Assembly (NCBI GenBank): GCA_964440115.1
Contig: CAYTPV010000007.1
Location: 23,107 to 87,106, forward strand
DNA from: an uncultured Oscillospiraceae bacterium
GTDB lineage: Bacteria; Bacillota; Clostridia; Christensenellales; CAG-138
DNA length: 64,000 nucleotides
Reading direction: 5' to 3'
Positions 1,185 through 54,310 of the stretch are shown piece by piece; the stretch's first letter is position 1; each line of letters starts with the position of its first letter. Below the pieces are notes generated by a model. It was not told where the DNA came from. It ran no database searches and was given only the letters and a program-made list of their open reading frames with translations. The position numbers and the translations under genes are program-made.

Positions 1185-1454
1185 ATGGTCACGAAACAAA
1201 CGACGATTATCAACCAAACAGGGTTGCATGCCCGGCCAGCATCAGAGTTTGTGTCAACTGCAACCAAATTCAAATCCAAAATCACAGTTAAGCGCGCTGG
1301 TTCCGATAAGGAAGCCAATGCGAAGTCCATCGTGTTTGTCCTTTCCTTAGGGTTGACGAGGGGTACGGCGGTGGAAATATCCGCTTCCGGCGAGGATGAA
1401 GCGCAGGCGGTGGATACATTGGTTGCCCTTATAGAGTCGGGTTTTGGTGAATAA
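1185..1454 (+). CDS. ptsH: HPr phosphocarrier protein
   Basis: TGLHARPA (His15) and NAKSIV (Ser46) motifs; GGAGG RBS before ATG at 1185. Confidence 0.9.
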   Translation: MVTKQTTIINQTGLHARPASEFVSTATKFKSKITVKRAGSDKEANAKSIVFVLSLGLTRGTAVEISASGEDEAQAVDTLVALIESGFGE

Positions 1455-1478
1455 CCAAATCAGATAATGATTACAAAC

Positions 1479-1504
1479 AAAAGGCGGCGATTTGCCGCCT
1501 TTTG
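1479..1504. terminator. Bidirectional intrinsic terminator
   Basis: aaaaggcggc-gattt-gccgcctttt hairpin right after ptsH. Confidence 0.8.
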
Positions 1505-1508
1505 CCTG

Positions 1509-1656
1509 TCGAAAAAGTGGAGTATCCACTTTTTCGAGTTCACTGCGTAAGTTGTCGCTCGGTTTCCTGCTTACGCAGGAAAGCTGCCACGTCAACTTAC
1601 GCTCTAAGGTGTCATTTTGCACCGCACATGTCGCTGCAAAGTGACATATTGAAAGC
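1509..1656. repeat. ~150-bp multi-hairpin dispersed repeat, copy 1
   Basis: Matches the reverse complement of 3847-3995 with 8 substitutions and 3 single-base indels by manual alignment; contains three hairpin modules. Confidence 0.9.
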
Positions 1657-1713
1657 CTCATATTGAACAAAACGTTGCACGGCATCAATATATATAGGTT
1701 TATAGATAAACTG

Positions 1714-1739
1714 AAAAGGCGGCATTTTGCCGCCTTTTG
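1714..1739. terminator. Bidirectional intrinsic terminator, near-identical to 1479-1504
   Basis: aaaaggcggc-atttt-gccgcctttt, downstream of the Rieske gene. Confidence 0.8.
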
Positions 1740-1756
1740 TGTCGTAGTCCAGATCA

Positions 1757-2737
1757 TTATACTTGAGTGTTCTGCTGCAGCTCATTCCTTATTTTACGAT
1801 ACATAAGAATGGGGCCGTCCCCAGGCAGGAGCTTTTCATTCCCTTTAAAGGAAGATGCCTTGGGTCGCTGCGTAATCACAACGCGCCGGTCCTGACGTTC
1901 AATGATATAGGCCATTATCCTGCTGAAAGAAGCGCTCAGCTTATTAATAAACCGAAGTCTGCTAACTTTGGAATAAACGAAAATATAAAGTATGGTGTTT
2001 TCATCATCCACAGGCGCGAAGAAAATCACCAGCTTATATTTGGGGGCGATATGATTGAGCCATACATTCGGGAAACGGAAAGTAAGAAAAGTATGGCCGT
2101 TAATCGAGCATTCTCCCGCTTTCCTGGGTTTCTGGCCGTTATCTTTATCGTTTGCGGCGCTGGTGCGCAGCAGGCCGCTTGAGAACTCCACAGCGGGGCC
2201 GTTAACCAGCGTTTTATTGCCGCGGCCGATGGTGTTGTGATGTACAAATGGAAGATGGACGACATCCAACTGGTTTTCAATGCTTCGAGAATAATGACTG
2301 TTCCAATGGTCGCTCATCATACTGCTGGAATAACCGTTATCCAGATACTCGTCAAAAAAGGGCAGCGGTTGGTGGATGTTCGGTTCGTTGTCGCCGTACC
2401 ACATATAGATCATTTCGTGCTCTTCCCGGACTGCATGGCTTTTTACATGGTAGCGGGAAAGATCCTCCGTGGATGCTTTACCGTTTGCAGGGATAAACCT
2501 GCAGCGGCCATCCGGAAGAAACTGAAGGCCGTGAAACGGGCATTGCAGGCAATCACCCACTATTTTGCCGCCGCTTAAAGCCGCGCCGCGGTGGGAACAC
2601 ATATCCTCAACACACCCAAGCTCGCCTGATTTGTTTCGAAACAATGCAAGCTGAACGCCAAGCCGTACAACGGATACGATTTTGCCCTTTTTAACTGAAC
2701 TGCATGGAAGTATTGCATACCATTGATTTTGAATCAT
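1757..2737 (-). CDS. Rieske [2Fe-2S] aromatic ring-hydroxylating oxygenase alpha subunit (VanA/KshA-like)
   Basis: CSHRG...CPFHG Rieske motif; ENQLDVVHLPFVH and ERQD mononuclear-iron ligands. Confidence 0.9.
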   Translation of the reverse strand: MIQNQWYAILPCSSVKKGKIVSVVRLGVQLALFRNKSGELGCVEDMCSHRGAALSGGKIVGDCLQCPFHGLQFLPDGRCRFIPANGKASTEDLSRYHVKSHAVREEHEMIYMWYGDNEPNIHQPLPFFDEYLDNGYSSSMMSDHWNSHYSRSIENQLDVVHLPFVHHNTIGRGNKTLVNGPAVEFSSGLLRTSAANDKDNGQKPRKAGECSINGHTFLTFRFPNVWLNHIAPKYKLVIFFAPVDDENTILYIFVYSKVSRLRFINKLSASFSRIMAYIIERQDRRVVITQRPKASSFKGNEKLLPGDGPILMYRKIRNELQQNTQV

Positions 2738-2830
2738 AGTGACACCCCATTTTTGCTGATATGCATATATACTGCAAAAATCGGCGGCTCAAACGAGATT
2801 GGTATTTCCGGTTTTATGCAAAGCTTTGGG

Positions 2831-3550
2831 TCAGGATTGATATTGAGTTAATGTTTCTGTATCCGGATCTGCAATGAGTATGCCTGTGGTACCGTCGACA
2901 ATCACGGTGTGGCCTGCTAGATCAGCAAGATCGCTTCCAATTTCAAATACAGCGGGTATTCTAAGCGCCCGTGCAAATATGGCAGCATGGGAAGTTTGCG
3001 AGCCGCCCGTGCATATAATCCCCAGCACAGAGTCGTGCCTGAAGCTGGCAACCTGACTTGGGAAAAAATCTGCAGCGGCGTAAATGGCTGGAGTATCGGA
3101 TAAGGCGGGGGAGGATTGCCTGCCGGACAATATTCTGATCAGACGATCGGATATATCGAGTATATCGGCAGCCCGGGCTTTCATGTATTCATCGTCCATT
3201 TCGGAAAATATGGCGGCGATATTTGCTGAAGCCTGATCGATGGCGTATTCGGCGCACAACCGATCGTTTTGGATGACGGTCAGCACATTCTCCCGGAATT
3301 CATCGTCTTCAAGCATCATTTTGTGCACGCTGAACAAAGCAGCGTTTTCTTTGCCAAGCGGTTCGGTTGAATGAAGCTCCAATTCTTCGAGCTCCTTCAT
3401 AGCCTGATCCACGGCATCTAAATAACGCTCCACTTCTGCATCGGGCGCAGTAATACTGCGCTTTAGTTCCGGTCTCTTACTGGGGATGAAAATGACATGG
3501 CCTATGGCAATGCCGGGACTGGCCGGTTTGCCAGTAAATTTGTTCATCAT
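2831..3550 (-). CDS. Stand-alone PTS enzyme I N-terminal phosphocarrier module (no PEP-binding C-domain)
   Basis: GKPASPGIAIG start, helical HPr-binding region, GSQTSHAAIFARALRIPAV phospho-His motif; ends at 239 aa. Confidence 0.85.
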   Translation of the reverse strand: MMNKFTGKPASPGIAIGHVIFIPSKRPELKRSITAPDAEVERYLDAVDQAMKELEELELHSTEPLGKENAALFSVHKMMLEDDEFRENVLTVIQNDRLCAEYAIDQASANIAAIFSEMDDEYMKARAADILDISDRLIRILSGRQSSPALSDTPAIYAAADFFPSQVASFRHDSVLGIICTGGSQTSHAAIFARALRIPAVFEIGSDLADLAGHTVIVDGTTGILIADPDTETLTQYQS

Positions 3551-3570
3551 AACCTCCTCCCTGAGGCAGC

Positions 3571-3828
3571 TTAGATGTTCTTATCGAGGTATTCTGCCAA
3601 TGCAATGTGCGCATCCTGTTCATCCGGGCCGCTGATGGATATGGCGAGCATGCTGCCGCCTTTTGTACCCAGTCCCATGACCTGAAAAAGCTTTTTTGCA
3701 TTGGCTGATTTTGCACCGCTTTGAAGGGTAATATCCGAGGCGTATTGTGAAGCGAGCTTAACCAGCAGCCCTGCGGGGCGTGCGTGCAGTCCAAGTTCGT
3801 CTTTGATTTCGTGCTCAAAAGTAATCAT
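3571..3828 (-). CDS. HPr-family phosphocarrier (second paralogue)
   Basis: LGLHARPAG His15 motif; Ser46 position reads NAKKLF. Confidence 0.9.
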   Translation of the reverse strand: MITFEHEIKDELGLHARPAGLLVKLASQYASDITLQSGAKSANAKKLFQVMGLGTKGGSMLAISISGPDEQDAHIALAEYLDKNI

Positions 3829-3846
3829 ACTTCGCGCTCCTGTTTA

Positions 3847-3995
3847 GCTTTCAATACGTCATTTTGCAGCGACATGTGCGGTGCAAAATGACACCTTAGA
3901 GCGCAAGTTGACGCGACAGCTTTCCTGCGTAAGCAGGAACCGAGCGGCAACTTGCGCGGTGAACTTCGAAAAAGTGGATACTTCCACTTTTTCGA
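3847..3995. repeat. ~150-bp multi-hairpin dispersed repeat, copy 2 (inverted relative to copy 1)
   Basis: Reverse complement of 1509-1656; sits between dhaM and the second HPr gene. Confidence 0.9.
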
Positions 3996-4000
3996 TACAG

Positions 4001-4025
4001 CGGCCCTGCCCTTAAGGCAGGGCCG
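4001..4025. terminator. GC-rich hairpin downstream of dhaM
   Basis: cggccctgcc-cttaa-ggcagggccg perfect 10-bp stem; no clear U-tract. Confidence 0.5.
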
Positions 4026-4060
4026 CGCGAGACCGTATACGGTCAGCCTTTGGTATTGAG

Positions 4061-4444
4061 TTACTTATCTAAATTGAATTCCTCCAACTGGGATAAAATT
4101 TCATCCAATCCCGCTCCTCCGGCGATAGAGACTGCGGCCAATACGCTGCCCTCCACCAGAGCGGCAGCAGAAACGTGAATTCTATGCTGGCTTTTTTCTT
4201 CCATTGCATCGATTGCGGTTTCGACTGTCAGCACGGAAGAACCCATATCAGCCAGAACGATGACATCGCCTTGATTCACAGCGGCAGTCAGCGCTTCAAC
4301 AATGCTGTCATAGTCCGATCCCAGCGTGCCCGCTTTGCTGCCGCCAATCGCATAGATATTGGCGCCTCCGCTGACTTCGCCAGCCAGTTCTTTCACGCCT
4401 TCCGCTATTTTTTTGCTGTGGGATACGATCACCAGCGAAACCAT
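4061..4444 (-). CDS. dhaM: PTS-dependent dihydroxyacetone kinase phosphotransferase subunit (EIIA-Man-like domain only)
   Basis: MVSLVIVSHS (His9), LADMGSS motif; follows dhaL. Confidence 0.9.
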   Translation of the reverse strand: MVSLVIVSHSKKIAEGVKELAGEVSGGANIYAIGGSKAGTLGSDYDSIVEALTAAVNQGDVIVLADMGSSVLTVETAIDAMEEKSQHRIHVSAAALVEGSVLAAVSIAGGAGLDEILSQLEEFNLDK

Positions 4445-4448
4445 GTAC

Positions 4449-5084
4449 TCATGCCCCCTTTACACTGGCGGCAAGGGTTTCGATCATCAGGCAGCTCGAC
4501 ATCGCGCCGGGGTCAATGTGCCCGATACTGCGTTCGCCCAAATAGGAGGCGCGGCCCTTTGTGGCCAGAGTATCCTTCGTTTTTTCGGCACATTCCCTTG
4601 CGAGCTTTGCAGCCTTTTCCAAAGACGAGGCGACGGATACCAATGCGTCCGCGTCTGCTTGTATGGATTGCTGTACGGGGATGAGTACATCCAGCATTGT
4701 CTTTTCACCATAATTCGCTTTGCCGCGCATCTGCACGCCCTCAATGCCGGTTTTCAAGAACAGGGCAAGATCTGAAAGCGTCAATTCGGCTTTACCCTTC
4801 GCAACGGCGGACCCTTTCAAAAACAGAGTGCCATACAGCGGGCCTGACGCGCCACCCACATTGGATATAAGAGCCATTGCGGTTGCCTTAAGCAATGCCT
4901 CGGCATCCGCGCTTTCGTCCTGTGCTATTTTGGCTTTTGCCGCTTCAAAGCCACGCGCCATATTGTGGCCATGATCGCCATCCCCAATGGCTGCGTCCAG
5001 ATCTGTCAGCTCCTGCTTATGCAGTTCGATTGTTGCGGCTATATCCAACAGAATGTGCCGAACCTCTTTCGATGTAATACTCAT
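4449..5084 (-). CDS. dhaL: Dihydroxyacetone kinase ADP-binding subunit
   Basis: LDAAIGDGDHG, GGASGPLYG, TKGRASYLGERSIGHIDPGA motifs; start set at 5084 after GGAG RBS. Confidence 0.95.
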   Translation of the reverse strand: MSITSKEVRHILLDIAATIELHKQELTDLDAAIGDGDHGHNMARGFEAAKAKIAQDESADAEALLKATAMALISNVGGASGPLYGTLFLKGSAVAKGKAELTLSDLALFLKTGIEGVQMRGKANYGEKTMLDVLIPVQQSIQADADALVSVASSLEKAAKLARECAEKTKDTLATKGRASYLGERSIGHIDPGAMSSCLMIETLAASVKGA

Positions 5085-5141
5085 GTCAGCATCTCCATTT
5101 TTCATTCCCCGTTTTTGGGTAAACAGTTAAGCGCCGATGAT

Positions 5142-6134
5142 TTATACTTTGTAGGCAATGGTGTTTGCCTTTGCATCATAATACGATTTCAATTCACCAT
5201 CCAGCTTGAGTATGGTGACCGACGCGCCCGCCATCTCAATGGAGGTCATATAGTTGCCTACATTGGTATGGTAAATCTTTATGCCCTTACCGGTCAGGAT
5301 TTCGTTCACCTTGCGGTTCATGATGAACAATTCCATCAAGGGCGTGCCGCCCAGACCATTGACCAGAACAGCGACCTCATCGCCGGATTTCAGCGGCATG
5401 TCTGAAAGTATTTTATCCACCAATTCCTCTGTAATTTCATCGGCGGAACGCATTTTTTCTTTGCGGATGCCCGGCTCGCCATGTATGCCCAACCCCATTT
5501 CCATTTCATCTTCATTGAGCGTAAAGTTGGGCTTCCCGGCCATGGGGACGGTGCAGGGCGTCAGTGCCATACCCATCGTGCGGATGTTGGCGATTACTTT
5601 CTCACCGATCGCCTGTACTTCCTCAAGGCTCTTGCCTGCTTCAGCTGCTGCGCCCGCGATTTTGTGCAGCAGTACAGTGCCCGCAATGCCGCGGCGGCCG
5701 ACTGTCCAGGTGCTGTTCATCACTGCTACGTCGTCGTTGATGACGACTTTTGCAACTTTGATACCTTCAGCTTCCGCCATTTCCATGGCCATTTCAAAGT
5801 TCATGACATCGCCGGTGTAGTTTTTGATTACAAGCAGCACGCCAGCGTCTGTTTGTACTGCCTTAATTGCCTCAAATACCTGATCGGGGGTGGGGGAGGT
5901 GAATACAGCACCGCACACGGCCGCATCAAGCATACCTTCTCCGACAAATCCGGCGTGAGCGGGTTCATGGCCGCTGCCGCCGCCGCTGACCAGAGCCACC
6001 TTTCCTTTCTTTTTGTTGCTGCGTACCATGACTTCCAGACCGTTCAGCCTCTTGAGATACTGGGGATAGGCCAGCGCCAGACCGTTCAGCATTTCTTCAA
6101 CGACATTTTCAGGACTGTTGATAAGTTTTTTCAT
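5142..6134 (-). CDS. dhaK: Dihydroxyacetone kinase substrate-binding subunit
   Basis: GGGSGHEPAH, KNYTGD, GLGIHGEPG motifs. Confidence 0.95.
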   Translation of the reverse strand: MKKLINSPENVVEEMLNGLALAYPQYLKRLNGLEVMVRSNKKKGKVALVSGGGSGHEPAHAGFVGEGMLDAAVCGAVFTSPTPDQVFEAIKAVQTDAGVLLVIKNYTGDVMNFEMAMEMAEAEGIKVAKVVINDDVAVMNSTWTVGRRGIAGTVLLHKIAGAAAEAGKSLEEVQAIGEKVIANIRTMGMALTPCTVPMAGKPNFTLNEDEMEMGLGIHGEPGIRKEKMRSADEITEELVDKILSDMPLKSGDEVAVLVNGLGGTPLMELFIMNRKVNEILTGKGIKIYHTNVGNYMTSIEMAGASVTILKLDGELKSYYDAKANTIAYKV

Positions 6135-12005: not shown

Positions 12006-15000
12006 ATGTACGAAACGGGTTGCTTTCAAAAGGACCTCTCAACAAATTATCCGATTTTTGAAAAAGCATTTGAAAATAACCCTTGCCCAATGGCGATCAC
12101 TGAAGTCGGCACCGGGTGTTACCTTCATGTCAATGATGCATTCTGCAAAATAACTGGTTATGATCGAGATGAGATCGTCGGTAAGACAATATTCGAATTA
12201 AACATTTTCATCAATGTCGAATCAAGAAAAGCGTTATTGCAGCAGCTATCGCAAAATGGATTGTTAAGTGAATATGAAGTTGAATTCAATACTAAGGGTG
12301 GCGCTATAAAGTACGGAGTGTTCTCAGCACATACAATTGAGTCCCAAGGTTATCATTTAATTCTCACGATAATAGACGACATTACTGATACTAAAGTCAT
12401 CAGTCATAGACTGCTCCAAAGTGAAACCGGTTATTTAGCCGCGTTTAATCAGGCTGCTGTTGGAATGTGTGATTTATCCCTAAACGGGCTGTTCATCCGT
12501 GCAAATAGAAAAATGTGCGAGATGCTGGGATATACTGAAGAAGAACTATTAAAACTTAATGTTAACGATGTTACGCACCCCGAAGACGAGGATAAGAGCA
12601 CCCAAGCATTTGGCAGTTTGGATTCAAACGAAAAAAATAGTATAACATTTGAAAAAAAGTGTGCCCGTAGGGATGGCTCTGTTCTGTGGGTTAATATCAC
12701 ATATTCAATTATTCGCGATGCTAATGGCATACCTTTATATATTAATGCGGTAATACATGATATTACAAAACGAAAATGTGCAGAAACAAAACTGGCAAGC
12801 GTAGAGTCTAATTTCAAAACCGTGTTTGAAACGATAGATGATCTTTTCTTTGTAGTTAATCTGAAAGGTATTGCTATATATGTAAACAGCATTGCTCTTA
12901 AGAAACTGGGGTATACCAGTGAGGAATGCAAAGGATTGAATATTTTAGATCTTCATCCAGAGCCATTTCGAATAGAAGCAGAGCAAATCTTCGCCGATAT
13001 GGTCGCAGGTAAGCAGAATAGTTGTGCTCTGCCTCTATTAAAAAAAGATGGTTCTTATTTGCCTGTCGAGACACGAATTTGGCTTGGCCAATGGGATGAC
13101 GAGCCGTGCTTTCTAGGGATTTCAAGGGATTCGTCGAAAGAGCAGGAAGCCCAACAGAAATTTAATAAGATATTTGAATATAACCCCGCAATAATGGCAA
13201 TTAGCTCAATTAATGGTATCTTTACTGACGTAAATCTAGCCTTTCTAAATACATTGGGCTACTTTCGTGAGGAGGTTATTGGAAAGACTGCCGCAGAACT
13301 AGAACTATTTAGTGAGCCCGAAAAGCTTAATGACATAAAAAACGAGGTTCTGTTGCATGGAAGATCCTATAATAATGAGCTAAAAGTGCGTACCAAGAGC
13401 GGGGATTTATTATATGGGCTTTTTTCAGGGGAAATTATTGAAAGTCAGGGCAACCGGCATTTCCTGTCGGTGATGAAGGACATAACTGAAATAAAAAGCG
13501 CCGAAGAAAAGCTCAGCAGTCTTAACCATGAACTAGTGTTAAAAAGTGAAGAAATCGAAGGTTTCTTCTCAGTTAACTTGGATCTGCTTTGCATCGCAGA
13601 TCAAAGTGGAAAATTTCTTAGGGTTAATAAGTCGTGGGAGAATATACTGGGTTATTCCTGTGAAATACTGGAGAACAGCAGCTTCCTAGATTATGTACAC
13701 CCTGAAGATATCCCTGCAACTTTAGATGCAATGTTCACACTTTCTGGTCAGAAAGAAGTAACGAATTTTGTTAATCGTTATAAAACAAAATGTGGCCAAT
13801 ATAGGTACATCGAATGGCGGTCCAAACCATATGCGGAAAAGATCTACGCAGCAGCACGCGATATTACTGATCATATACTGCTAGAAAATCAGCTAAAAGA
13901 ACAAAAAGAACAATTTGAATTAGCCATAAATGGAAGCAATGACGGTATTTGGGACTGGAATTTGAATACCAACGAACTCTTTCTATCAGCAAGATGGAAA
14001 GAGCTGCTAGGATATGCTGATAGTGAAATTGACAACCATTATGACTCATTTGCTTTGCTGCTGCATCCCGAAGACAAGCAAAATTTTGAAAAAGCAGTAA
14101 GCCATTACTTGAACAGTCATTTTAAATTATTTGACACCGAATTCCGAATGCTCCATAAAAACGGAAGCTACCGGTGGATATGGGCCAGAGGTGAGGCTAT
14201 TAGAGGAAGCGATGGCAAAATTAACAGAATGGCGGGTTCTCATACCGATATTACTGCTAAAAAAGAAGCCGAAAGAATAATACAAGACCGGGAAAGGTAC
14301 TTTAGGACAGTTATCCAAACTACACAGGACGGATTTTGGGTAATTGGAGAGGATCATCGGCTCACATATGTGAACGAAGCCTATTGTCGTTTATCCGGCT
14401 ATACAAAAGACGAATTGCTCAATCTTAATATAGAAAATTTAGAGATAAATGAGGCACCTGAAGAGGCAGAGCAAAAATTGAAAAGAATACTTATGAACGG
14501 ATCAGAGATATTCGAGACTAAACATCGAAAAAAAGATGGGACAATTATCGACGTTCAGATCTCTGCTTCTTGCATGTGTAAAGAACCACTTACCGTTATT
14601 TGCTTTTGCCGGGATTTTACGGAGCGCAAAAAGAAGGATGCGGAATTGGCTCATTTCAATAGTTTAATGCAATATATTATTGAGCATAATCGCAGCGCAG
14701 TAGCAGTTCATGATAAGAATCTGAACTATATGTATGTGAGTCGGCCCTATTTAGAAAGTTATCGGATTAGCGAACAAGAAGTGATTGGCAAGCATCACTA
14801 TGAAGTGTTCCCAGACCTACCGCAAAGATGGAGGGATGTACACCAAAGGGTACTGAAGGGAGAGGTATTAAGTGCAGAAGAGGATCAATATCAACGGCAA
14901 GACGGTACAGTAGACTGGACCCGCTGGGAATGCAGGCCGTGGTATGAAAGCGATGGTAGCATCGGAGGGATGATAGTTTACACAGAAGTGATAAACGAAC

Positions 15001-16436
15001 GTAAAAAGATGGAACAAATGATTTTTAATGAAAAAGAACAGTTTAGAACGACTTTGTTATCAGTTGGAGATGGCGTAATCGCGACCGATAATCAGGGAAA
15101 CATTACGGTTATGAATCCGGTTGCTGAGGAACTTACAGGTTGGAAGTTTGCTGAAGCAAATGGTAGTTCATTGGAACAGGTATTTAGAATTGTTAATGAA
15201 TATACATGGGAGGCTTGCGAGAACCCAGTAAAAAAAGCATTGGATTCTGGCAGTGTCGTTGCTCTTGCCAATCATACAATATTGATTTCAAAAAGCGGGA
15301 AAGAGGTACCTATTGAAGATAGCGCTGCCCCAATTAAGAATGCTTATAATGAAACAACAGGGGTTGTTTTGGTTTTCAGGGATTTTACTGAAAAACGAGA
15401 AAAGCAAAAACAAGTAGAGTATTTAAGTTTTCATGATCAATTAACCGGGCTATACAACCGCCGCTTTTTCGAAGAGGAATTGAAAAGACTTGACACAACG
15501 CGAAATCTCCCGGTTAGCATGGTTATGTTGGATGTTAACGGGCTAAAATTAATTAATGATGCATTTGGCCATCAATCCGGAGATAAGATGCTTAAAGTAG
15601 TTGCTGACGTTTTAAGAAAAGAATGCCGTGCCGACGATATTATTTCTAGAATTGGAGGAGACGAGTTTATTATTCTTCTGCCACAAACTGACGAAAAGGG
15701 AACTCATAGTCTTATTGGTAGAATTAAGAATGCCCTTTCGGAAGAACGTATTAAAGGGATCCAAATTTCGGTTTCATTTGGTTCGGATACAAAACATGAG
15801 TCTAATAAGACTAGTGACGAGATGCTAAAGTTTGCAGAAGATTGTATGTACCGTGATAAGATCTCGGACCGCAATAGCCAGCGATATGAAGCGATTCATA
15901 TGATAATGAGAACATTGCATGAAAAAACGCCAAGAGAAAGGCAGCATTCTTTCAGGGTAGGTAAGTTATGCGAAAAAATCGGCATAGCAATGGAATTAAA
16001 TCCAAATGAAATTAGTAAATTGACTACGGCTGCGGAGTTACATGACATCGGGAAAATTGCTATAAGTAACGAAATGCTGGATAAGACCGGGTCTCTAACT
16101 GATATAGAATGGCTCGAGATCAAACGACATCCAGAGGTGGGTTATAATATTTTAAGCTCAGCGAATGCATATGCACCATTGGCTGATATCGTCCTCGCGC
16201 ATCATGAACGCTGGGATGGACATGGATATCCTAACGAATTGAAGGGTGAGGCTATACCATTGATGTCAAGAATTATCGGAATAGCCGATGCTTATGATGC
16301 AATGACTGAAAATAGACCTTATAGAAAAGCTTTGAGTAAATCGCAGGCTATTAAGCAACTAGTTGCAGGCGCAGGAACACAATTTGATGCTGAATTGCTA
16401 AATGTCTTTGTTGATATAGTAAGTAAGGACATATAG
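12006..16436 (+). CDS. Multi-PAS (about 9) GGDEF + HD-GYP c-di-GMP enzyme
   Basis: Repeated PAS/PAC units ending in DIT/DFT; HDQLTGLYNRR, RADD-IISRI-GGDEF; LHDIGK and HHERWDGHGYP motifs. Confidence 0.92.
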   Translation: MYETGCFQKDLSTNYPIFEKAFENNPCPMAITEVGTGCYLHVNDAFCKITGYDRDEIVGKTIFELNIFINVESRKALLQQLSQNGLLSEYEVEFNTKGGAIKYGVFSAHTIESQGYHLILTIIDDITDTKVISHRLLQSETGYLAAFNQAAVGMCDLSLNGLFIRANRKMCEMLGYTEEELLKLNVNDVTHPEDEDKSTQAFGSLDSNEKNSITFEKKCARRDGSVLWVNITYSIIRDANGIPLYINAVIHDITKRKCAETKLASVESNFKTVFETIDDLFFVVNLKGIAIYVNSIALKKLGYTSEECKGLNILDLHPEPFRIEAEQIFADMVAGKQNSCALPLLKKDGSYLPVETRIWLGQWDDEPCFLGISRDSSKEQEAQQKFNKIFEYNPAIMAISSINGIFTDVNLAFLNTLGYFREEVIGKTAAELELFSEPEKLNDIKNEVLLHGRSYNNELKVRTKSGDLLYGLFSGEIIESQGNRHFLSVMKDITEIKSAEEKLSSLNHELVLKSEEIEGFFSVNLDLLCIADQSGKFLRVNKSWENILGYSCEILENSSFLDYVHPEDIPATLDAMFTLSGQKEVTNFVNRYKTKCGQYRYIEWRSKPYAEKIYAAARDITDHILLENQLKEQKEQFELAINGSNDGIWDWNLNTNELFLSARWKELLGYADSEIDNHYDSFALLLHPEDKQNFEKAVSHYLNSHFKLFDTEFRMLHKNGSYRWIWARGEAIRGSDGKINRMAGSHTDITAKKEAERIIQDRERYFRTVIQTTQDGFWVIGEDHRLTYVNEAYCRLSGYTKDELLNLNIENLEINEAPEEAEQKLKRILMNGSEIFETKHRKKDGTIIDVQISASCMCKEPLTVICFCRDFTERKKKDAELAHFNSLMQYIIEHNRSAVAVHDKNLNYMYVSRPYLESYRISEQEVIGKHHYEVFPDLPQRWRDVHQRVLKGEVLSAEEDQYQRQDGTVDWTRWECRPWYESDGSIGGMIVYTEVINERKKMEQMIFNEKEQFRTTLLSVGDGVIATDNQGNITVMNPVAEELTGWKFAEANGSSLEQVFRIVNEYTWEACENPVKKALDSGSVVALANHTILISKSGKEVPIEDSAAPIKNAYNETTGVVLVFRDFTEKREKQKQVEYLSFHDQLTGLYNRRFFEEELKRLDTTRNLPVSMVMLDVNGLKLINDAFGHQSGDKMLKVVADVLRKECRADDIISRIGGDEFIILLPQTDEKGTHSLIGRIKNALSEERIKGIQISVSFGSDTKHESNKTSDEMLKFAEDCMYRDKISDRNSQRYEAIHMIMRTLHEKTPRERQHSFRVGKLCEKIGIAMELNPNEISKLTTAAELHDIGKIAISNEMLDKTGSLTDIEWLEIKRHPEVGYNILSSANAYAPLADIVLAHHERWDGHGYPNELKGEAIPLMSRIIGIADAYDAMTENRPYRKALSKSQAIKQLVAGAGTQFDAELLNVFVDIVSKDI

Positions 16437-16976
16437 ACCATATTTGAGAATTATGACCCTTTAAGACCTATACTTATAGCCTCGGCTGATGCTTATAACA
16501 AGGAACGCCAACACCAATACGATGCTTGGGCTACAAAATGAGGCCGTCCCACGAAAAAATAAATTGACAGATTATATTAGTTTGCTTACGAAGTCTGAAT
16601 ATGCTGCCCACTTAAGCTTGCGGATCCAATCCTCACCTGCACCAGTGACAGTGCTTAGGCTCAACGGCACCCGCATAATCTGGGTTTGACCATTCTTCGA
16701 AGAACCATGATCTCGAATTGAAATATAATATTCTATACTGCAAATCAGAAGCCCAAACAGATTGAAAATATTCAAAATTCATACCATGGGGTTGAAATTA
16801 TTATACTAGATACAGGGGCTAAAGAGTTGTAAAAGAGATACCGGTAACAATTCGTCAATTGATTGAATAAGTCGGATTCTACTGCAGCGGTTCTCACGGT
16901 GAGAAAAACCAACTTACCCCAAAACAGACGGACAAAAATCTCTAAAGATGTAAATGCTCCCCGATAGCTTGTGTAA

Positions 16977-17573
16977 TCATGCTTCACTCAGTACGGCAAG
17001 ATATTTATCAAGTGTTGGACGGCTAATCCCGCAAATTCTAGCATAATCAGTTTTAGTAATACTACCAGATTGATACAAGTCCCAAGTTTTGATAACTTTA
17101 GCGGATATGTCCTTGATTCCTATTGTTGGTCTACCTAGCTTCACGCCTTTTGCCTTTGCATTTGAAAGACCACTCTTTACACGTTGGCTTATCATATCAC
17201 GCTCTAATTCGGCGAATACCCCTGCCATTTGAAGAAACGCTTTAGTCATTGGGTCTAGCTTTCCGACCGTGCAATCAATCGTGATGCTATTGCAAATAAC
17301 AAGTCGTATATGCTTATTTTGGCAAAGCTCAATAATGTCGCAAAGCTGCTTTGTGCTGCGGGTGATCCTACTTACTTCGGTTACAATAATTGAATCCCCT
17401 TCACCCACAGTATCCAATAGACGCTTTAACTGTAACCTGTTAATTTTTGTTCCACTCTCATATTCAAAGTAGATATTGTCTTTATCAACGCCTTGCGCTT
17501 TAAGTTGTTTTCGCTGATACTCTACATCCTGCTTTGTTTCATTGGTACTGCATCTGGCATATCCGTACAGCAT
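16977..17573 (-). CDS. Small serine recombinase (resolvase/invertase family)
   Basis: YGYARCST catalytic Ser motif, EVSRITRS, AELERDMISQRVKSGL, C-terminal HTH (GISRPTL). Confidence 0.92.
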   Translation of the reverse strand: MLYGYARCSTNETKQDVEYQRKQLKAQGVDKDNIYFEYESGTKINRLQLKRLLDTVGEGDSIIVTEVSRITRSTKQLCDIIELCQNKHIRLVICNSITIDCTVGKLDPMTKAFLQMAGVFAELERDMISQRVKSGLSNAKAKGVKLGRPTIGIKDISAKVIKTWDLYQSGSITKTDYARICGISRPTLDKYLAVLSEA

Positions 17574-18141
17574 GTTCCCTTATACTCCTTACATTTTCTT
17601 TTAGTATATACAAAAAGCAGAAAATGCAAACGAAAATATTGTAAACGAAATAAACGGATTTTGCCGCCATTTTTGCACCGCAATACGCTCTCTTTTATGG
17701 ATGTTGGAGTGTAAACGAAATCAAAGGTTTTTGATCCACACACGAACATACTCAAACGTAGTGGATGTACCCATACTGATAGTGTCTGTAGGGTCTATAC
17801 GAGCATTCAGAAAGTCATCCGCATGTTCAAAAAGAAAGGTTGGCCTTTAATCCGCGAAACCTATACCCGGATGGGGAGATAGAAAGTTGCGTATTCAAGG
17901 CTCCCCGAAAATTTCTCTATCCACCCCGCGCTTATTCCAATGGCAATACCCAACACAAAAGGGGCAATCCTGAAGCACTTCACAACTACCAAAAAAATAA
18001 CTGAAAACGTAAGAACTTTCTTATGATTTTTCAATACAAAAGAGTAGGGTAAGGCATTTATACCACCCCGCTATTTCATATCTGATTTTTCAAATAACAA
18101 TCTTATAAAAATGAATGAAATTTTAACTGTTGGCGCTTTAA

Positions 18142-18325
18142 TTAAACTCGATTGTAGATATAGACACCAGTATATTTCTGATTCCGCAATATCTCAAAAA
18201 TTGAATTCTTGCGAAAATCATCAGCGCGTTTTGTCTTATACCCACGTAAACGCAATTCATCAATCATTTCAGTGTATCGGCAACCATCAAGCGCCATTTG
18301 GTATATTAGCTGAATTATTGAGCAG
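18142..18325 (-). pseudogene. Fragment of a large serine recombinase (recombinase DNA-binding domain)
   Basis: IIQLIYQMALDG..RGYKTKR...SIFEILRNQKYTGVYIYNR matches the typical LSR recombinase domain; no catalytic domain present. Confidence 0.7.
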
Positions 18326-18359
18326 AACGAGGGTAGACAAGTCGAGGCGCTAAGCAGGG

Positions 18360-19508
18360 GTGTATCAAAGGAAGATTGCATTAGAATTAAAAAAGAACGA
18401 GGATAAGCGCAAGAAAGGGACTCTAGAATCAATTATTGAAAATCATGTTGAAAAATATAACGCCTATCTAGATATCAATGTTGATTTAGATAATTTTGTT
18501 GTTGAAATACAAAGCTTGACTGAAGAACTTAATACACAATTATCAAGGCGAAACGCAATTAAGGAAGCAATTGTACGGTATACAAACGATCTTCGCAATA
18601 TTACAGAATTATATTCTATTGCCTATTCCAATTACTATGAATTATTGGGTGATGCTGACTATTTAGAACGTTCCATAAAAAAGGACACTATTGTTTGCCC
18701 TATTTGTGGAACTGAACATTCAAATAGCTTCAATAATCGCTTCAATCTGTTTCGTGATATCCAAGAATGCGAACAATTAATGAGTTCATATTTTGATAAA
18801 AAATATGAGCTCGAAAAGCAACTAAGCGAATGTACTGCGGACTTTAATAAACTGAACGAATATATTGAAACGGTTAATTCTATTCTCAATCGAAAAAGAG
18901 ACAAACTGGCCTTTAGGGATGTCGTATTGGCCGAAGGTTCAAAATCGATATTGTATGATATGAAAAAAGAACTGGGGCTTATCAGATCTTCTTTAGCACA
19001 GACGGAAGCAGATTTGAAGGATATTACAAAAGAGCAGACGAGAATTTCTAAAGACGGGCGGGATATAACTGATTTGTACCTCGAGCAGCTTAGAAACTAC
19101 TTAAGATTACTGGATGTAAATGATATCCGAGAAAACGATGTAAAGAAATTTACAGCATCATTTGCAAGCGGCGGCAATGATCTACCGTGTGCTATTCTAG
19201 CCCAAGTATATGCAATAGCATACGTTGCAGGAATATATTCACACACTGTTATGGCTCCTATAGTGTTGGATGCAATATTTCAACAAGAACCTGCAAAGGC
19301 TAAGATACAGCAGATATTTAGATTTTTATTAAGAGAACAGCCGCCTGAAACACAACTGATTATTTCTACAACAGAATTATATGGCAATAATCCGGCGGGA
19401 AAGATAATTGTATTAGACAGAGAGAGAGGTCTATTATGCAAAAGTGATTATGACACCATTACCACAGAATTAGAGTGCTTTAAAGCTTTAGCATATGATC
19501 AAACATAA
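18360..19508 (+). pseudogene. C-terminal part of an SMC-like ABC ATPase (Lamassu LmuB / ABC-three-component-like), N-terminus missing
   Basis: Coiled coil with CPICG hook, SGGNDLPCAILA signature-like motif, PIVLDAIFQQE Walker B region, QLIIST; no Walker A in the ORF. Confidence 0.65.
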
Positions 19509-19574
19509 ATTGACTACCACAAAGGCTGCTTCGAGCAATTGTTAGTTTGATATCATCGTAAAGGCTAAAATAGA

Positions 19575-19605
19575 AAAAAGGAGCGACTTTTAATCGCTCC
19601 TTTTT
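19575..19605. terminator. Bidirectional intrinsic terminator
   Basis: aaaaaggagcga...tcgctccttttt between convergent ORFs. Confidence 0.8.
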
Positions 19606-19610
19606 ATAAT

Positions 19611-19826
19611 TCATGCAACCTCGTGCCACCTGTTTTCCCTAGCAAGCACATTCCCGTCATTGTCCCCAAACTTGGGTATCTCCCTATAATGGGGAAACGT
19701 CGCAAGGAACCACCGTTTCACATAGTTGTATGGATTACGTTGCACCCCCGCCATTGTCCTGACTGTTTTAAAATCTTGCCAAATAAATAGGGCATCTTGG
19801 AGCTTGATACTTCTTGAAGATACCAA
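19611..19826 (-). CDS. Small hypothetical or degraded ORF downstream of the integrase
   Basis: 71-aa ORF co-oriented with the integrase, followed by a terminator; start lacks a clear RBS. Confidence 0.35.
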   Translation of the reverse strand: MVSSRSIKLQDALFIWQDFKTVRTMAGVQRNPYNYVKRWFLATFPHYREIPKFGDNDGNVLARENRWHEVA

Positions 19827-19887
19827 TCATGATGCAGTAAGTTGATTTGGGTTGTAGTATTTTCTATAAAGTTTGTATGGACTTCTA

Positions 19888-20787
19888 TCAAAGATGCGCC
19901 AATACGCCTGTTCTTCTAGCTGTACGCAAAATCTGAGCGTCCTGCATCGATTCTAGGTATCTTTGCGTGATTGCAACACTTTCATGCCCTAAAAGCCGGC
20001 TAAGGCTATATAAGTCAAGCCCGTTTTTTAACTGTAGTTGCGCAAAGGTGTGCCTACAGGTATGAGGCGAGACTCTTACCATAGGATTCACATTTACTGC
20101 TGCCGCCGCATTCTTAATGAACTTCGAAATTCCTTCCTCAGTCAACCGTTTTCCATTCTTGCTTAGAAACACAAGGTCACTCTCGCGCCTGTACTGAAAA
20201 TAGGCGTTTCGGACTTGTAAGTATTTCATTAACCATTTCGCAACCATTGGGTTTTTGGGGACAACACGTTCCTTTCTTCCTTTTCCATAAATGCAAAAGT
20301 AGGTGTCTCTTATTTGGTCCAAGCGCATATTGATAAGCTCCCCGAGGCGAATGCCCGTATTGAAGAAAATCATAAGTATTATCTTGTTTCGGATGCTCAG
20401 ATAGTCCATTCCATTGTAGTAGTTGATGATCTTTGTTATTTCCTCATCGGAGAAGGTATGTATGAGGACTTTTGGTTGTTTCAAATTCTTGATCTTCTCA
20501 GTTAAAAGTGAGCTGGTATAACCTTCATTAAACGCATAACGAGACAGGCATTTTATTGATTTCAGAATGTCATTGATATAGGACGGCTTATTTCCTCTTC
20601 GCTCATAGCTGACAAGAAATTCTTTTATCATCTGCGGCCTTATCTGTTCTACTTCAGAAATATTTTGCCGTTCTAGGAACGCAAGGAAATAAGAGATTTG
20701 TGTTTGATAGAACTTGACCGTTCTGGGCGAGAGATTCCGCACATAGCAATCGAATTCAAACTCTTTGGCTAACTCTTTGAGCAACAT
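19888..20787 (-). CDS. Tyrosine recombinase/integrase
   Basis: Catalytic residues all present: TGIR, GKGRKER, HTCRH, LGHES, TQRY; start set at ATG 20787 after AAAGAGGT. Confidence 0.95.
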   Translation of the reverse strand: MLLKELAKEFEFDCYVRNLSPRTVKFYQTQISYFLAFLERQNISEVEQIRPQMIKEFLVSYERRGNKPSYINDILKSIKCLSRYAFNEGYTSSLLTEKIKNLKQPKVLIHTFSDEEITKIINYYNGMDYLSIRNKIILMIFFNTGIRLGELINMRLDQIRDTYFCIYGKGRKERVVPKNPMVAKWLMKYLQVRNAYFQYRRESDLVFLSKNGKRLTEEGISKFIKNAAAAVNVNPMVRVSPHTCRHTFAQLQLKNGLDLYSLSRLLGHESVAITQRYLESMQDAQILRTARRTGVLAHL

Positions 20788-20956
20788 AAAAACATACCTC
20801 TTTCTCAAAGCTTTACACTCAAAGAAAGAGGTATGATAACGCTTTTGGATTTTGTACGGTTATCGTACCATGCGCGGTTTATCGTACCACAAAGATACCC
20901 AAACCTTAACGTTTATCGGCACGCCCGCAACAGAAAACCCAGCCAAATCGGTTGTT

Positions 20957-22006
<1,050 letters not shown>

Positions 22007-22162
22007 TTATAGTTTAAGCCCATATAAATAATATAAGGCAATAAAACCTTTGCTTATACTATCGCATTTTTTGGGCTTATGCAAGAGCCATTTGCCCATT
22101 ATTCGTTAATATTAACACAGACAGGCCGGACATACGTCCGGCCTATGGAAACAGCCTGTATT

Positions 22163-50269: not shown

Positions 50270-50694
50270 GATTACTCCTATTCTATCGGTTGCGTTGTGC
50301 TGCGCACTGTCGGCCGGCTGTCCGAATGTCTGTTAAACAGAATTTCAAGTGCGCCTGCATGCCGCCATACTTTATTACAATAAAAAACACATGTCCTTTG
50401 CAAATCATCAACCAACAATGACTTACAGGACATGTGAGGCAATGGTGCATGCTGAATACTTATGAATCATAGCATGTACAGTAAAATTTGTCAACTCTGC
50501 TACGTACCGCTTCAGATCGGTTGGATATTTCTAAACTATACAAATTGATGCTTGGGAAAGTTGACTTAATTATAACGAATAAAAATAATTATATTTTTCT
50601 TATTTTTTTTACTAAACTAATTGTAAATTGTGCCGAAGTTATAAATAATATATGTTTACGTACCTATTTGTTAAATACTGTAAGGAGATTGTTA

Positions 50695-51870
50695 TTGGAT
50701 TTTGGAACAATGATTATGATTCCTATCGCTGCTCTGGCGAGTGGAATTATATCGTTAGTGCACAAGGGCCACTCGAAATTGTGGGGATTTTTTATTGCGC
50801 TTCTCAGCCTTGCCTTTGGCCTGTTTTTATATAATAACATCACGCTGTTCAAGAATTGGAACAATATATTGATAATTTCGGGCGGTTGCATCGCAGTTTT
50901 AGATACGCTCTATCTTTTTCTGGTTGTACGCAATGACCGCCGTATTCATAAAAAAGGAAACGCGAAAAAAGCGGGCAGAAGGAACGTCAATTCCGCACCA
51001 AACACACCCATTCAAAAAACGAATTGCGAAGCATTCGATCTTTCTTACACTTCTGCTGCTGAACTCCATATTAAACGAAAACCGGTTGTATGTGAAATAC
51101 AGTATGTAGCAGAAGAAAACACCCTTGATGCAATACCTGATGTTTTTGTGTCACACAATGCAGGTATGTTGACTATTGCTCCGGGCAATTGGCCTTTGGG
51201 GGAAGTTAGATATCCACAAGTGATGGAAGAACATGCAAATGTGCTGGAGGCTATGCCAATCAGCCAGATGGATGACAGCACGCCCAACCAGTTTGCCGAA
51301 AGTTCGCTGTGTTCTGAACTTGAGGCGGTCGTCGATGCTGAGGCTTCGGATATCAGCGCTGATCCTTTCCACCCGGCCGATAAGAGAGATCCGGTACTTG
51401 ATGTGCAGGATCAAATGATCAACGATTCTCCGACGACAAATATCGAGGAATTTTCACCAACGACAAATATTGAGGAAGATTCTCCAACGACAAATATTGA
51501 GGAAGATTCTCCGACGACAAATATCGAGGAAGATTCACCGACGACAAAGATCGAGGAAGTTTCACCAGCGACAAATATCGAGGAAGATTCACCGACGACA
51601 AAGATCGAGGAAGATTCTCCGGCAACAAAAAATGATGAAGAAAGCACCGTAAAATCTAAAAACGTATCGTATGACATGCCTTTCCAATCGTACATGCAAG
51701 AGATTACCCGGTTAGTATCCGAAAAGCAATATTCCCGTGCGAGGGCCGGCATATTTGAGGTGCTCGGCATGAATTTGGATTTATCCGCTGATGACAAAAT
51801 GAGACTCATGCTGATTATGAAGTTGCTTAAAGATAAGGAAAAGGGTGCCGATGGAATACAAACGCGCTGA
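50695..51870 (+). CDS. Membrane-anchored acidic hypothetical protein with 9-aa tandem repeats
   Basis: TTG start after AAGGAG; three N-terminal TMs; (D/F/V)SP(T/A)T(N/K)IEE repeats. Confidence 0.7.
   Translation: MDFGTMIMIPIAALASGIISLVHKGHSKLWGFFIALLSLAFGLFLYNNITLFKNWNNILIISGGCIAVLDTLYLFLVVRNDRRIHKKGNAKKAGRRNVNSAPNTPIQKTNCEAFDLSYTSAAELHIKRKPVVCEIQYVAEENTLDAIPDVFVSHNAGMLTIAPGNWPLGEVRYPQVMEEHANVLEAMPISQMDDSTPNQFAESSLCSELEAVVDAEASDISADPFHPADKRDPVLDVQDQMINDSPTTNIEEFSPTTNIEEDSPTTNIEEDSPTTNIEEDSPTTKIEEVSPATNIEEDSPTTKIEEDSPATKNDEESTVKSKNVSYDMPFQSYMQEITRLVSEKQYSRARAGIFEVLGMNLDLSADDKMRLMLIMKLLKDKEKGADGIQTR
51424..51639 (+). repeat. 27-bp coding tandem repeat, 8 units (last degenerate)
   Basis: Unit gattctccgacgacaaatatcgaggaa, in frame, no spacers. 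Confidence 0.9.
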
Positions 51871-54074: not shown

Positions 54075-54079
54075 GAAAC

Positions 54080-54310
54080 GACAGGCGATGACAGGGAGAG
54101 TAACGGACTGCGCGGCAGCAGAGAGAAACGGTCAAGGCTGAAAGCCGTTTTGGCAGGCGCATTTTGTGAAGGACACCTTTGGAGCCGCTCCGCCAAACCC
54201 ATATTGGCTCAGGCGGGGACGTATGCCGGCGTTAACGGTATGAGTGGAGCCATAATGGCTCAATCAGGGTGGTACCGCGGGTCTCCCGTCCCTATGCAGG
54301 ATGGGGGACC
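54080..54310 (+). ncRNA. T-box riboswitch, His specifier
   Basis: AGAGA and GCTGAAA stem I boxes, CAC specifier at 54174-54176, T-box AGGGTGGTACCGCG at 54266-54279. Confidence 0.92.

Follow-up and report, generated by a model that had tools for sequence, protein, structure and literature searches.

IS1630 of Mycoplasma fermentans, an insertion sequence (IS) of the IS30 family, has been reported to create target duplications the size of a whole structure, and only some of its copies keep the duplication (PMC2853133, PMC3317919); in one genome, duplications were found at 4 of 7 copies (PMC3317919). Some elements of the IS1202 group create duplications of 16-28 bp, and their outer ends start with TGT (PMC10132070). 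The structured repeats of bacteria that resemble miniature transposable elements with inverted repeats (MITEs), namely ERIC/IRU, BOX, RUP, Correia and bcr1, have been reviewed (PMC2229807, PMC3184786). Beyond model bacteria, small non-coding mobile repeats are poorly catalogued. Here we describe an element of this small size that occurs in two copies, A and B, in a 64,000-nucleotide stretch of DNA (the window) from an uncultured Oscillospiraceae bacterium (contig CAYTPV010000007.1, positions 23,107 to 87,106).

The element belongs to a multi-copy family whose internal hairpins covary, and in several copies the same host terminator hairpin stands directly outside both ends. We put the probability at about 0.55 that the family is MITE-like, non-autonomous mobile DNA that inserts at terminator hairpins, duplicates them, and is mobilized in trans.

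A family of covarying hairpin elements

Copy A (1509-1656, + strand) and copy B (3847-3995, - strand) form an inverted repeat with 92.7% identity over 150 columns (blastn within the window, E 3.7e-57), and a repeat search of the window returns the same two segments as inverted arms. The copies are in opposite orientation, 2.2 kb apart. Pairwise alignment separates them by 8 substitutions and 3 one-base indels, which bears out the reverse-complement pair described in the initial annotation; all 8 of the 8 substitutions are transitions. On either strand both copies fold into the three hairpin modules that had been proposed (-65 to -71 kcal/mol, z -7.4 to -8.7), and 0 of 200 shuffles are equally stable. 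The proposed extent of about 150 bp holds for the segment in which the two copies are similar, but it misses the 3′ third of a unit that is about 210 bp long.

The initial annotation had advised a count of further copies, and this gave 22 in 8 assemblies. A covariance model (CM) built from 16 of them scores the family at 44-181 bits, with 2 copies in the window, 13 in one Clostridia metagenome-assembled genome (MAG), and 1-2 in each of six further assemblies. When the whole 64 kb was scanned with filters off, copies A (1507-1657, 163 bits) and B (3846-3997, 173 bits) were the only matches. An exact 21-mer from the third hairpin, H3, matched 17 stretches in GTDB representative genomes: 13 matches, at 12 loci on 11 contigs, in the MAG Clostridia bacterium ZNE14_Bin7 (JAVBWI01), and a single match in each of Eubacteriales bacterium OttesenSCG-928-K08, Firmicutes bacterium ADurb.Bin182 and two Bacillota MAGs. 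A 21-mer match in a Chloroflexi coding region is a chance match, as are L005 and two metagenome contigs that carry the exact 21-mer without any other feature of the element. L021 (GCA_032774505.1) holds a diverged copy that was met by chance in a locus fetched as the context of a Rieske homologue. L024, a Joint Genome Institute (JGI) contig with two copies, was found through the sole match of element-spanning spurious open reading frames (ORFs) in a set of 5.8 billion proteins.

The family is absent from all the libraries and literature we searched, and is an undescribed non-coding repeat of several uncultured Clostridia genomes. At the gathering threshold, Rfam 15 matched nothing in the window except a T-box leader (54079-54296), with no match to families that include HEARO, CRISPR-DR, group II intron, raiA and Clostridiales-1. 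Even at E<=10 over 1400-4100 no Rfam family matched the hairpin modules of copy A or B, in agreement with the initial view that the family is unnamed. The full unit had no blastn match in the plasmid or the phage collection, and there were zero matches to two different H3 patterns in viral contigs and to a degenerate H3 pattern in a metagenome scan. In many copies the reading frames across the element are interrupted by stops, and those that stay open shift with changes in the stems; coding for a small peptide was rejected on these grounds. With no coding capacity and about 210 bp, the element lies within the size range of MITEs (<~300 bp).

The genes that flank the copies are ordinary housekeeping genes, such as those for Fe-hydrogenase, GDPD, a B12-binding methyltransferase and an MFS transporter, and no recurring protein was found among the neighbors of the copies. 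The gene beside the ADurb.Bin182 copy (L006) has named homologues in MAGs of Christensenellaceae, Feifaniaceae and other Eubacteriales. The carrier is probably a spore former, as GerA/GerAC-type germination proteins and a SpoIIE-domain protein are encoded.

Family comparison resolves the full unit into H1, H2, the sequence-conserved H3, the variable H4 and a tail, GGTTTGTCGATrGC. The 5′ end is usually TGTCG, within the terminal motif TGTCGAmAAAG; the two ends of the element are TGTCGAmAAAG...CTTTGTCGAT. Copy A is the full-length example in the window (1505-1713, + strand, about 209 bp), its 3′ extension being set by comparison with other copies. H1 of copy A is a perfect 13-bp hairpin (1509-1537); across the family it has an invariant core, AAAGTG/CACTTT, and the pairs that flank the core covary. 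H2 (1545-1602) is a long hairpin with outer stem GCGTAAGTTG/CAACTTACGC and apical stem TTTCCTGC/GCAGGAAA, and its internal loops GCTCGG and CTGyC are conserved. H3 (1609-1647) consists in copy A of GTCATTTTGCA, a 13-nt loop CCGCACATGTCGC and TGCAAAGTGAC, followed by ATTGAAAGCC; the family form is GGTGTCATTTTGCA-CCGCACAnGTCGC-TGCAAAATGAC, then GGATTGAAAGCC, and by sequence this is the best-conserved segment of the element. RNAfold of the 3′ regions of all copies places H4 at 1653-1701 in copy A, closed by AAGCCT/AGGTTT (AAGCC/GGkTT across the family). The tail of copy A, AGGTTTATAGATAAACTG (1696-1713), follows the consensus AGGkTTTGTCGATrGC. In 8 copies the tail lies 38-41 nt after the core, and its match to the reverse complement of the 5′ end, at a constant position, is weak (7-8 of 12 bases). 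Copy B contains H1 (3966-3995), H2 (3901-3957) and H3 (3856-3893), all on the - strand, and lacks H4, the tail and the downstream repeat; its alignment to copy A stops at GAAAGC.

Whole modules vary among the copies. The L012 copy (5709-5832) has different 5′ hairpins with H3, H4 and the tail intact, and L004 has a short H2. A subfamily (L002 6052-6268, L007 6215-6435 and L024 4138-4375) shares an insertion of about 75 nt, forming two extra hairpins, in the H3 loop, and the L024 member has an additional large insertion in H2. Since the subfamily occurs in two different assemblies, the enlarged form itself has spread. H1 is shaped as a two-way terminator, with an A run, a stem and a T run, and may be derived from a captured target hairpin. 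Solo H1-like hairpins were seen upstream of a full copy in L008 (GTCAAAAAAGTGGCAAACGCCACTTTTTTCG, ~3955-3990) and downstream of one in L003 (GTGCCTTACGGCACTTTTTCGAGG, ~2610-2650). The 5′ end of copy A, TGTCGAA (1507-1513), also present in six other copies, equals the heptamer of the Spo0A box. Other copies have TGTCGGC, TGTCGAC or TTTCGAA there, and the likeness is probably a coincidence.

The stems remain complementary as the copies diverge. In the CM-fitted alignment 96% of cells are standard pairs, against 37-47% when the partners are slid, both sides have changed in 31 of 50 pairs, and 0 of 500 shuffles reach any of five measures. A MAFFT alignment, which is independent of the model, has 96.4% of cells paired and 16 pairs with two-sided changes, again with 0 of 500 shuffles as high. 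Two-sided changes affect 12 of 13 pairs in helix 1 (H1) and 16 of 19 in helices 2 and 3 (H2). H3 is nearly invariant in most copies, and the most diverged copies show paired stem changes with the loop kept. Covariation thus extends over the further copies, and the proposal that structure is selected or actively maintained is upheld.

The evidence first offered for that proposal fared differently. It was a single compensatory double change in H2, T-A against C-G, between copies A and B. Across the 22 copies this position is a C.A mismatch in 9, C-G in 7 and T-A in 3. Because 9 of 22 copies carry C.A, the swap looks like two separate single-step repairs of a mismatch, which would still reflect pressure towards pairing. 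The GTAA loop singled out at the same time (TTAC in the orientation of the element) is found in 8 of 22 copies only.

Duplicated terminator hairpins

The most informative feature of the family, missed by the initial annotation, is a duplicated terminator. The same host hairpin lies directly outside both ends in 6 of the 20 copies tested, copy A included, and 0 of 200 shuffles score as high. These flanking repeats are 18-39 nt long and unrelated between loci, and each has a stem-loop of the intrinsic-terminator kind. The repeat of copy A is 26-32 nt (1479-1504 and 1714-1739, 92%; flank alignment score 43), that of L006 is 30-39 nt, that of L009 is 18 nt, and that of L014, which begins within the stop codon of the upstream gene, is 24 nt. 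In L012 and L015 the repeats are 22 nt and identical at 22/22 positions, and this identity suggests that both insertions are recent. L021 offers a diverged example of the flanking duplication. Duplication length is not fixed and tracks hairpin size, a pattern pointing to cuts at both feet of a hairpin, palindromic or extruded, and subsequent fill-in.

A gene 3′ end adjoins 19 of 21 copies; 8 lie between convergent genes and 2 between divergent ones. At copy A, the left terminator hairpin, AAAAGGCGGCGATTTGCCGCCTTTTG (1479-1504, +), is 25 nt past the stop codon of an HPr gene (1185-1454, +), and the right one, AAAAGGCGGCATTTTGCCGCCTTTTG (1714-1739, +), is 17 nt from the stop codon of a convergent Rieske gene (1757-2737, -). 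Both are terminator-like in a consensus scan. An intact terminator with a T run is present ahead of the element in copy A and in L006.

On the 5′ side of copy B is a GC-rich hairpin, GCGGCCCTGCC CTTAA GGCAGGGCCGC (4000-4026, -), located by sequence and alignment between the stop codon of the DhaM-EIIA gene and the 5′ end of the copy. It occupies the position that the left target hairpin has in full-length copies, and has no T run and no second copy. The two window copies do therefore abut a GC-rich hairpin on the same side, as had been noticed: at copy A it is the left target copy, and copy B, whose 3′ part is missing, keeps only the left hairpin. The 3′ end of copy B lies 18 nt ahead of the ATG of an HPr-like gene, with the ribosome-binding site immediately after the copy. 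A 12-nt match inside the HPr coding sequence (p~0.015) was taken as chance.

Copy B lies within a dha operon, in the same orientation as the operon. The genes, all on the - strand, are dhaK (5142-6134), dhaL (4449-5105), a DhaM-type EIIA gene (EIIA-Man type; 4061-4444), the HPr-like gene (3571-3828) and a gene for the enzyme-I N-terminal and mobile domains (2831-3550). DhaM is split over the last three as separate ORFs (2831-4444), and copy B sits in the space that separates EIIA from HPr. The Rieske/VanA_C oxygenase gene that converges on copy A is downstream in the dha direction, and in the genomes of its closest homologues it has unrelated contexts. A zinc-type dehydrogenase gene (9-1154, +) precedes the HPr gene. 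An invertible segment between copies A and B was considered and rejected, as dhaK-dhaL-EIIA-HPr-EI(N), the order now in place, is functional; such a segment is also disfavored by the distance, 13 kb, to the sole small serine recombinase gene.

The repeat has practical consequences for sequence data. The only public short-read contig with the window locus (Logan contig L001, DRR182650, 2265 bp) starts and stops inside the two copies, so the repeat pair breaks de Bruijn assembly. A spurious ORF call crosses copy A (1347-1757, -).

Readings of the element and its spread

Transposition, the type of enzyme and any effect on RNA are what we infer from these observations. If the family is mobile DNA, a transposase supplied in trans would integrate the element beside gene 3′ ends, at the palindromic hairpins of intrinsic terminators. 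The strands would be cut on opposite sides of the hairpin, and gap repair would leave a whole hairpin on each side. H3 and the H1 core are likely cis-acting recognition sites, because they are conserved in sequence as well. The host would likely acquire a hairpin-rich 3′-end module, serving as an exonuclease barrier or weak terminator, given that the hairpins fold on either strand and that the element sits at gene ends. Copy A would be a complete insertion into the terminator common to the convergent HPr and Rieske genes. Copy B would be an older or trimmed insertion in the split dhaM, and the loss of its 3′ part could explain why it has no downstream terminator copy. The hairpins themselves may be kept by selection or by templated correction.

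Several points weigh against a mobile DNA element of this kind. The inverted repeat at its termini is short and inexact (7-8 of 12 bases), with 0-9 variable bases between repeat and duplication, and 14 of 20 copies have no detectable flanking repeat. No empty site was recovered, either from the loci of Rieske homologues or from the MFS neighbor of L006, and we infer insertion rather than see it. The loci of Rieske-gene relatives are not syntenic with the window, and a contig with a 99%-identical MFS neighbor stops at the 3′ end of that gene. No transposase with matching ends was found, neither among the window ORFs scanned nor beside any copy. Finally, it is not obvious why a cut-and-paste DNA transposon would need covarying internal hairpins. 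These better fit a functional RNA or a single-stranded DNA intermediate, or else call for a cause of their own, for example the templated correction of quasi-palindromes.

The main rival explanation is that the selected entity is a structured RNA and that spread through the genome is secondary. The RNA would be either a cis-acting module of the 3′ untranslated region (acting as a stabilizer, a terminator or a site of processing) or a small RNA whose end lies at the downstream terminator. This explanation is compatible with a mobile element, and we regard it as possible though doubtful. It draws on the strong covariation in H1 and H2, on the loops and junctions that are conserved as the stems vary (H3 of the diverged copies included), and on the structured expansions in the H3 loop and H2 of one subfamily. 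Many copies begin 6-25 nt past an upstream stop codon with a terminator after them. Sense-strand G.U pairs, in the form of a conserved T.G wobble, occur at the foot of H3 in 18 of 22 copies, and G.U is also found in the H4 closure AAGCCT/AGGTTT.

Covariation alone cannot tell RNA from DNA hairpins, and the strand evidence does not single out one transcript. With the H3 base set aside, stem mismatches number 16 G.T and 22 A.C, which is no strand preference and agrees with the initial judgment that wobble does not settle the functional strand. The commonest H2 mismatch, C.A, is a wobble on the opposite strand only, in opposition to the H3 foot. In tandem-gene contexts the element has the same orientation as the genes in 7 cases and the opposite orientation in 4, and L021 runs antisense to both called neighbors. 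Co-orientation with the upstream gene (15 of 20) is an artifact, since the convergent (8) and divergent (2) contexts are uninformative. Orientation relative to local GC skew is 10 versus 13. No conserved promoter was seen, the 5′ flank is never conserved, there is no Rfam match, and in copy A and L006 the intact terminator already precedes the element. Taken together, the wobble, orientation, GC-skew, promoter and preceding-terminator results favor selection or maintenance as DNA hairpins, or as transcripts of either strand, over a single sense RNA.

A more radical idea, which we consider speculative and rather unlikely, is that the family represents a new class: a self-propagating structured module that homes to terminator hairpins, with integration measured by the structure of the hairpin. 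The H1 core and the 13-nt loop of H3 would be the signals for a possibly host-encoded integrase, and the element would serve as a portable two-way 3′-end or terminator module whose fold on both strands is selected.

The remaining readings, which invoke HUH/REP substrates, retro-elements or CRISPR systems, have little support. The initial annotation had raised a REP- or MITE-like substrate of an HUH enzyme. The general description applies, in that the element is short, non-coding, multi-copy and extragenic; the HUH part does not. A REP/REPIN- or PATE-like substrate of an HUH tyrosine transposase (RAYT or IS200/IS605 TnpA) that reads hairpins in single-stranded DNA would account for extragenic palindromes at gene ends, stems with paired changes, conserved bases beside a hairpin, and equal tolerance of G.T and A.C. 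Insertions of the IS200/IS605 type make no long target duplications, however, and here long flanking duplications are present. The nearby RAYT or IS200 TnpA gene that one would look for is likewise missing, with no Y1_Tnp among the window ORFs scanned. Opposite-orientation copies lie only 2.2 kb apart, there is no strand bias by GC skew, and H1 and H3 are dissimilar, unlike the left- and right-end hairpins to be expected. An HUH substrate is therefore improbable.

Also very improbable is a retro-mobile RNA resembling a short interspersed element (SINE), copied by a reverse transcriptase into nicked terminator DNA with target duplications of variable length. The flanking duplications do differ in length, and the L012 copy keeps the 3′ part (H3, H4 and tail) with its 5′ modules replaced. 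However, the duplication length tracks hairpin size, which suggests that DNA structure is recognized. The truncation of copy B is 3′ and not 5′, and neither the window ORFs scanned nor the copy flanks yielded a reverse transcriptase.

The CRISPR-related reading can hardly be credited. A hairpin with GGATTGAAAG after it (window 1641-1657; in the family consensus, GACGGATTGAAAG) may resemble the 3′ part of type I-C CRISPR repeats. H3 with this motif could be a solitary repeat mimic, and a Cas1-type integrase could, in addition or instead, insert the element and duplicate a palindromic, repeat-sized target (18-39 nt is about the length of a CRISPR repeat). However, no Rfam CRISPR-DR match was found at E<=10, the window has no array, no cas gene among the ORFs scanned and no enrichment of the motif, and an insert of about 210 bp far exceeds a spacer.

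A Pfam search of the ORFs scanned across the 64-kb window found no transposase of any kind, be it DDE, Y1 (IS200/RAYT) or TnpB, nor any reverse transcriptase or Cas protein. Recombinases among them number just two, one a small serine recombinase (16977-17573) and the other a tyrosine integrase (19888-20808), 13-16 kb from the copies. No such partner gene was found in the loci of the other genomes. At L015, another inverted terminus lies 1.26 kb from the copy; it encloses a ferredoxin-type gene and no transposase, and was dismissed as a chance match.

Both recombinase genes lie in a low-GC patch (~14000-20500; 0.34-0.41 versus 0.48 overall) that is possibly an integrated element. The patch also contains a gene for a 1476-aa PAS-GGDEF-HD protein and an ORF without a Pfam match (18360-19508). 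Just beyond it, where GC is again >=0.5, is another ORF with no Pfam match (20852-22012). Elsewhere in the window, the T-box leader (108.8 bits) precedes a gene for histidyl-tRNA synthetase, after which comes one for aspartyl-tRNA synthetase (55650-57437). A 27-bp tandem repeat (51424-51629; 7.6 copies, 87% match) is codon-phased within a 460-aa ORF that has no Pfam match (50488-51870).

Relation to described systems

The family belongs to a known kind, the small structured mobile repeats, and the duplicated terminator is its unusual mark. It joins two features rarely met together, the duplication of a whole terminator hairpin and several covarying internal hairpins. If the family does insert at terminators as we propose, it would give a handle on an integrase that reads DNA structure instead of sequence, a natural portable 3′-end cassette, and a marker of recent genome change in uncultured Clostridia. 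In practical terms, a repeat of this kind breaks short-read assemblies and seeds spurious ORF calls.

In the literature we found, duplication of a whole terminator hairpin on insertion is reported for IS1630-type elements only. As with IS1630, the duplications of the present element (18-39 nt, a different terminator hairpin each, 6 of 20 copies) are whole hairpins. The resemblance does not extend to the element itself. IS1630 is an autonomous IS of 1.2-1.4 kb with 27-bp terminal repeats and a transposase gene, whereas the element is about 210 bp and non-coding. Unlike IS1630 it has at most an imperfect terminal repeat of 8-10 bp, and it has covarying internal hairpins; neither the window ORFs scanned nor the flanks of the copies showed an IS30-type gene. 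The IS1202 group shares the long duplications, and most element copies start with TGTCG. Members of that group, however, are 1.5 kb long with terminal repeats of 24-26 bp, hairpin targeting is not reported for them, and a related transposase was not found here, again among the window ORFs scanned and in the copy flanks.

In size and setting the element resembles ERIC/IRU, BOX, RUP, Correia and bcr1 (100-200 bp), which are likewise non-coding, dispersed, intergenic near gene ends, and folded into stable hairpins. BOX is built of A-B-C modules, and the element is similarly modular, its copies swapping or expanding whole modules. The duplications of these repeats are short (for example TA) or lacking, in contrast to the whole terminator hairpin duplicated here, and the sequence of the element is unrelated to any of them, as it has no Rfam, plasmid or phage match.

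Like REP/BIME and REPIN sequences with RAYT, the element is an extragenic palindrome at gene 3′ ends with stems that are kept complementary. Unlike them it is much longer, has several hairpins and flanking duplications, reaches at most tens of copies per genome, and is accompanied by no RAYT among the window ORFs scanned. Class C bacterial group II introns use insertion sites immediately downstream of intrinsic terminator stem-loops. The element is likewise met at such stem-loops, but it has no ribozyme domains (no Rfam intron match) and is ten-fold too short, its target is duplicated, and it occurs in either orientation.

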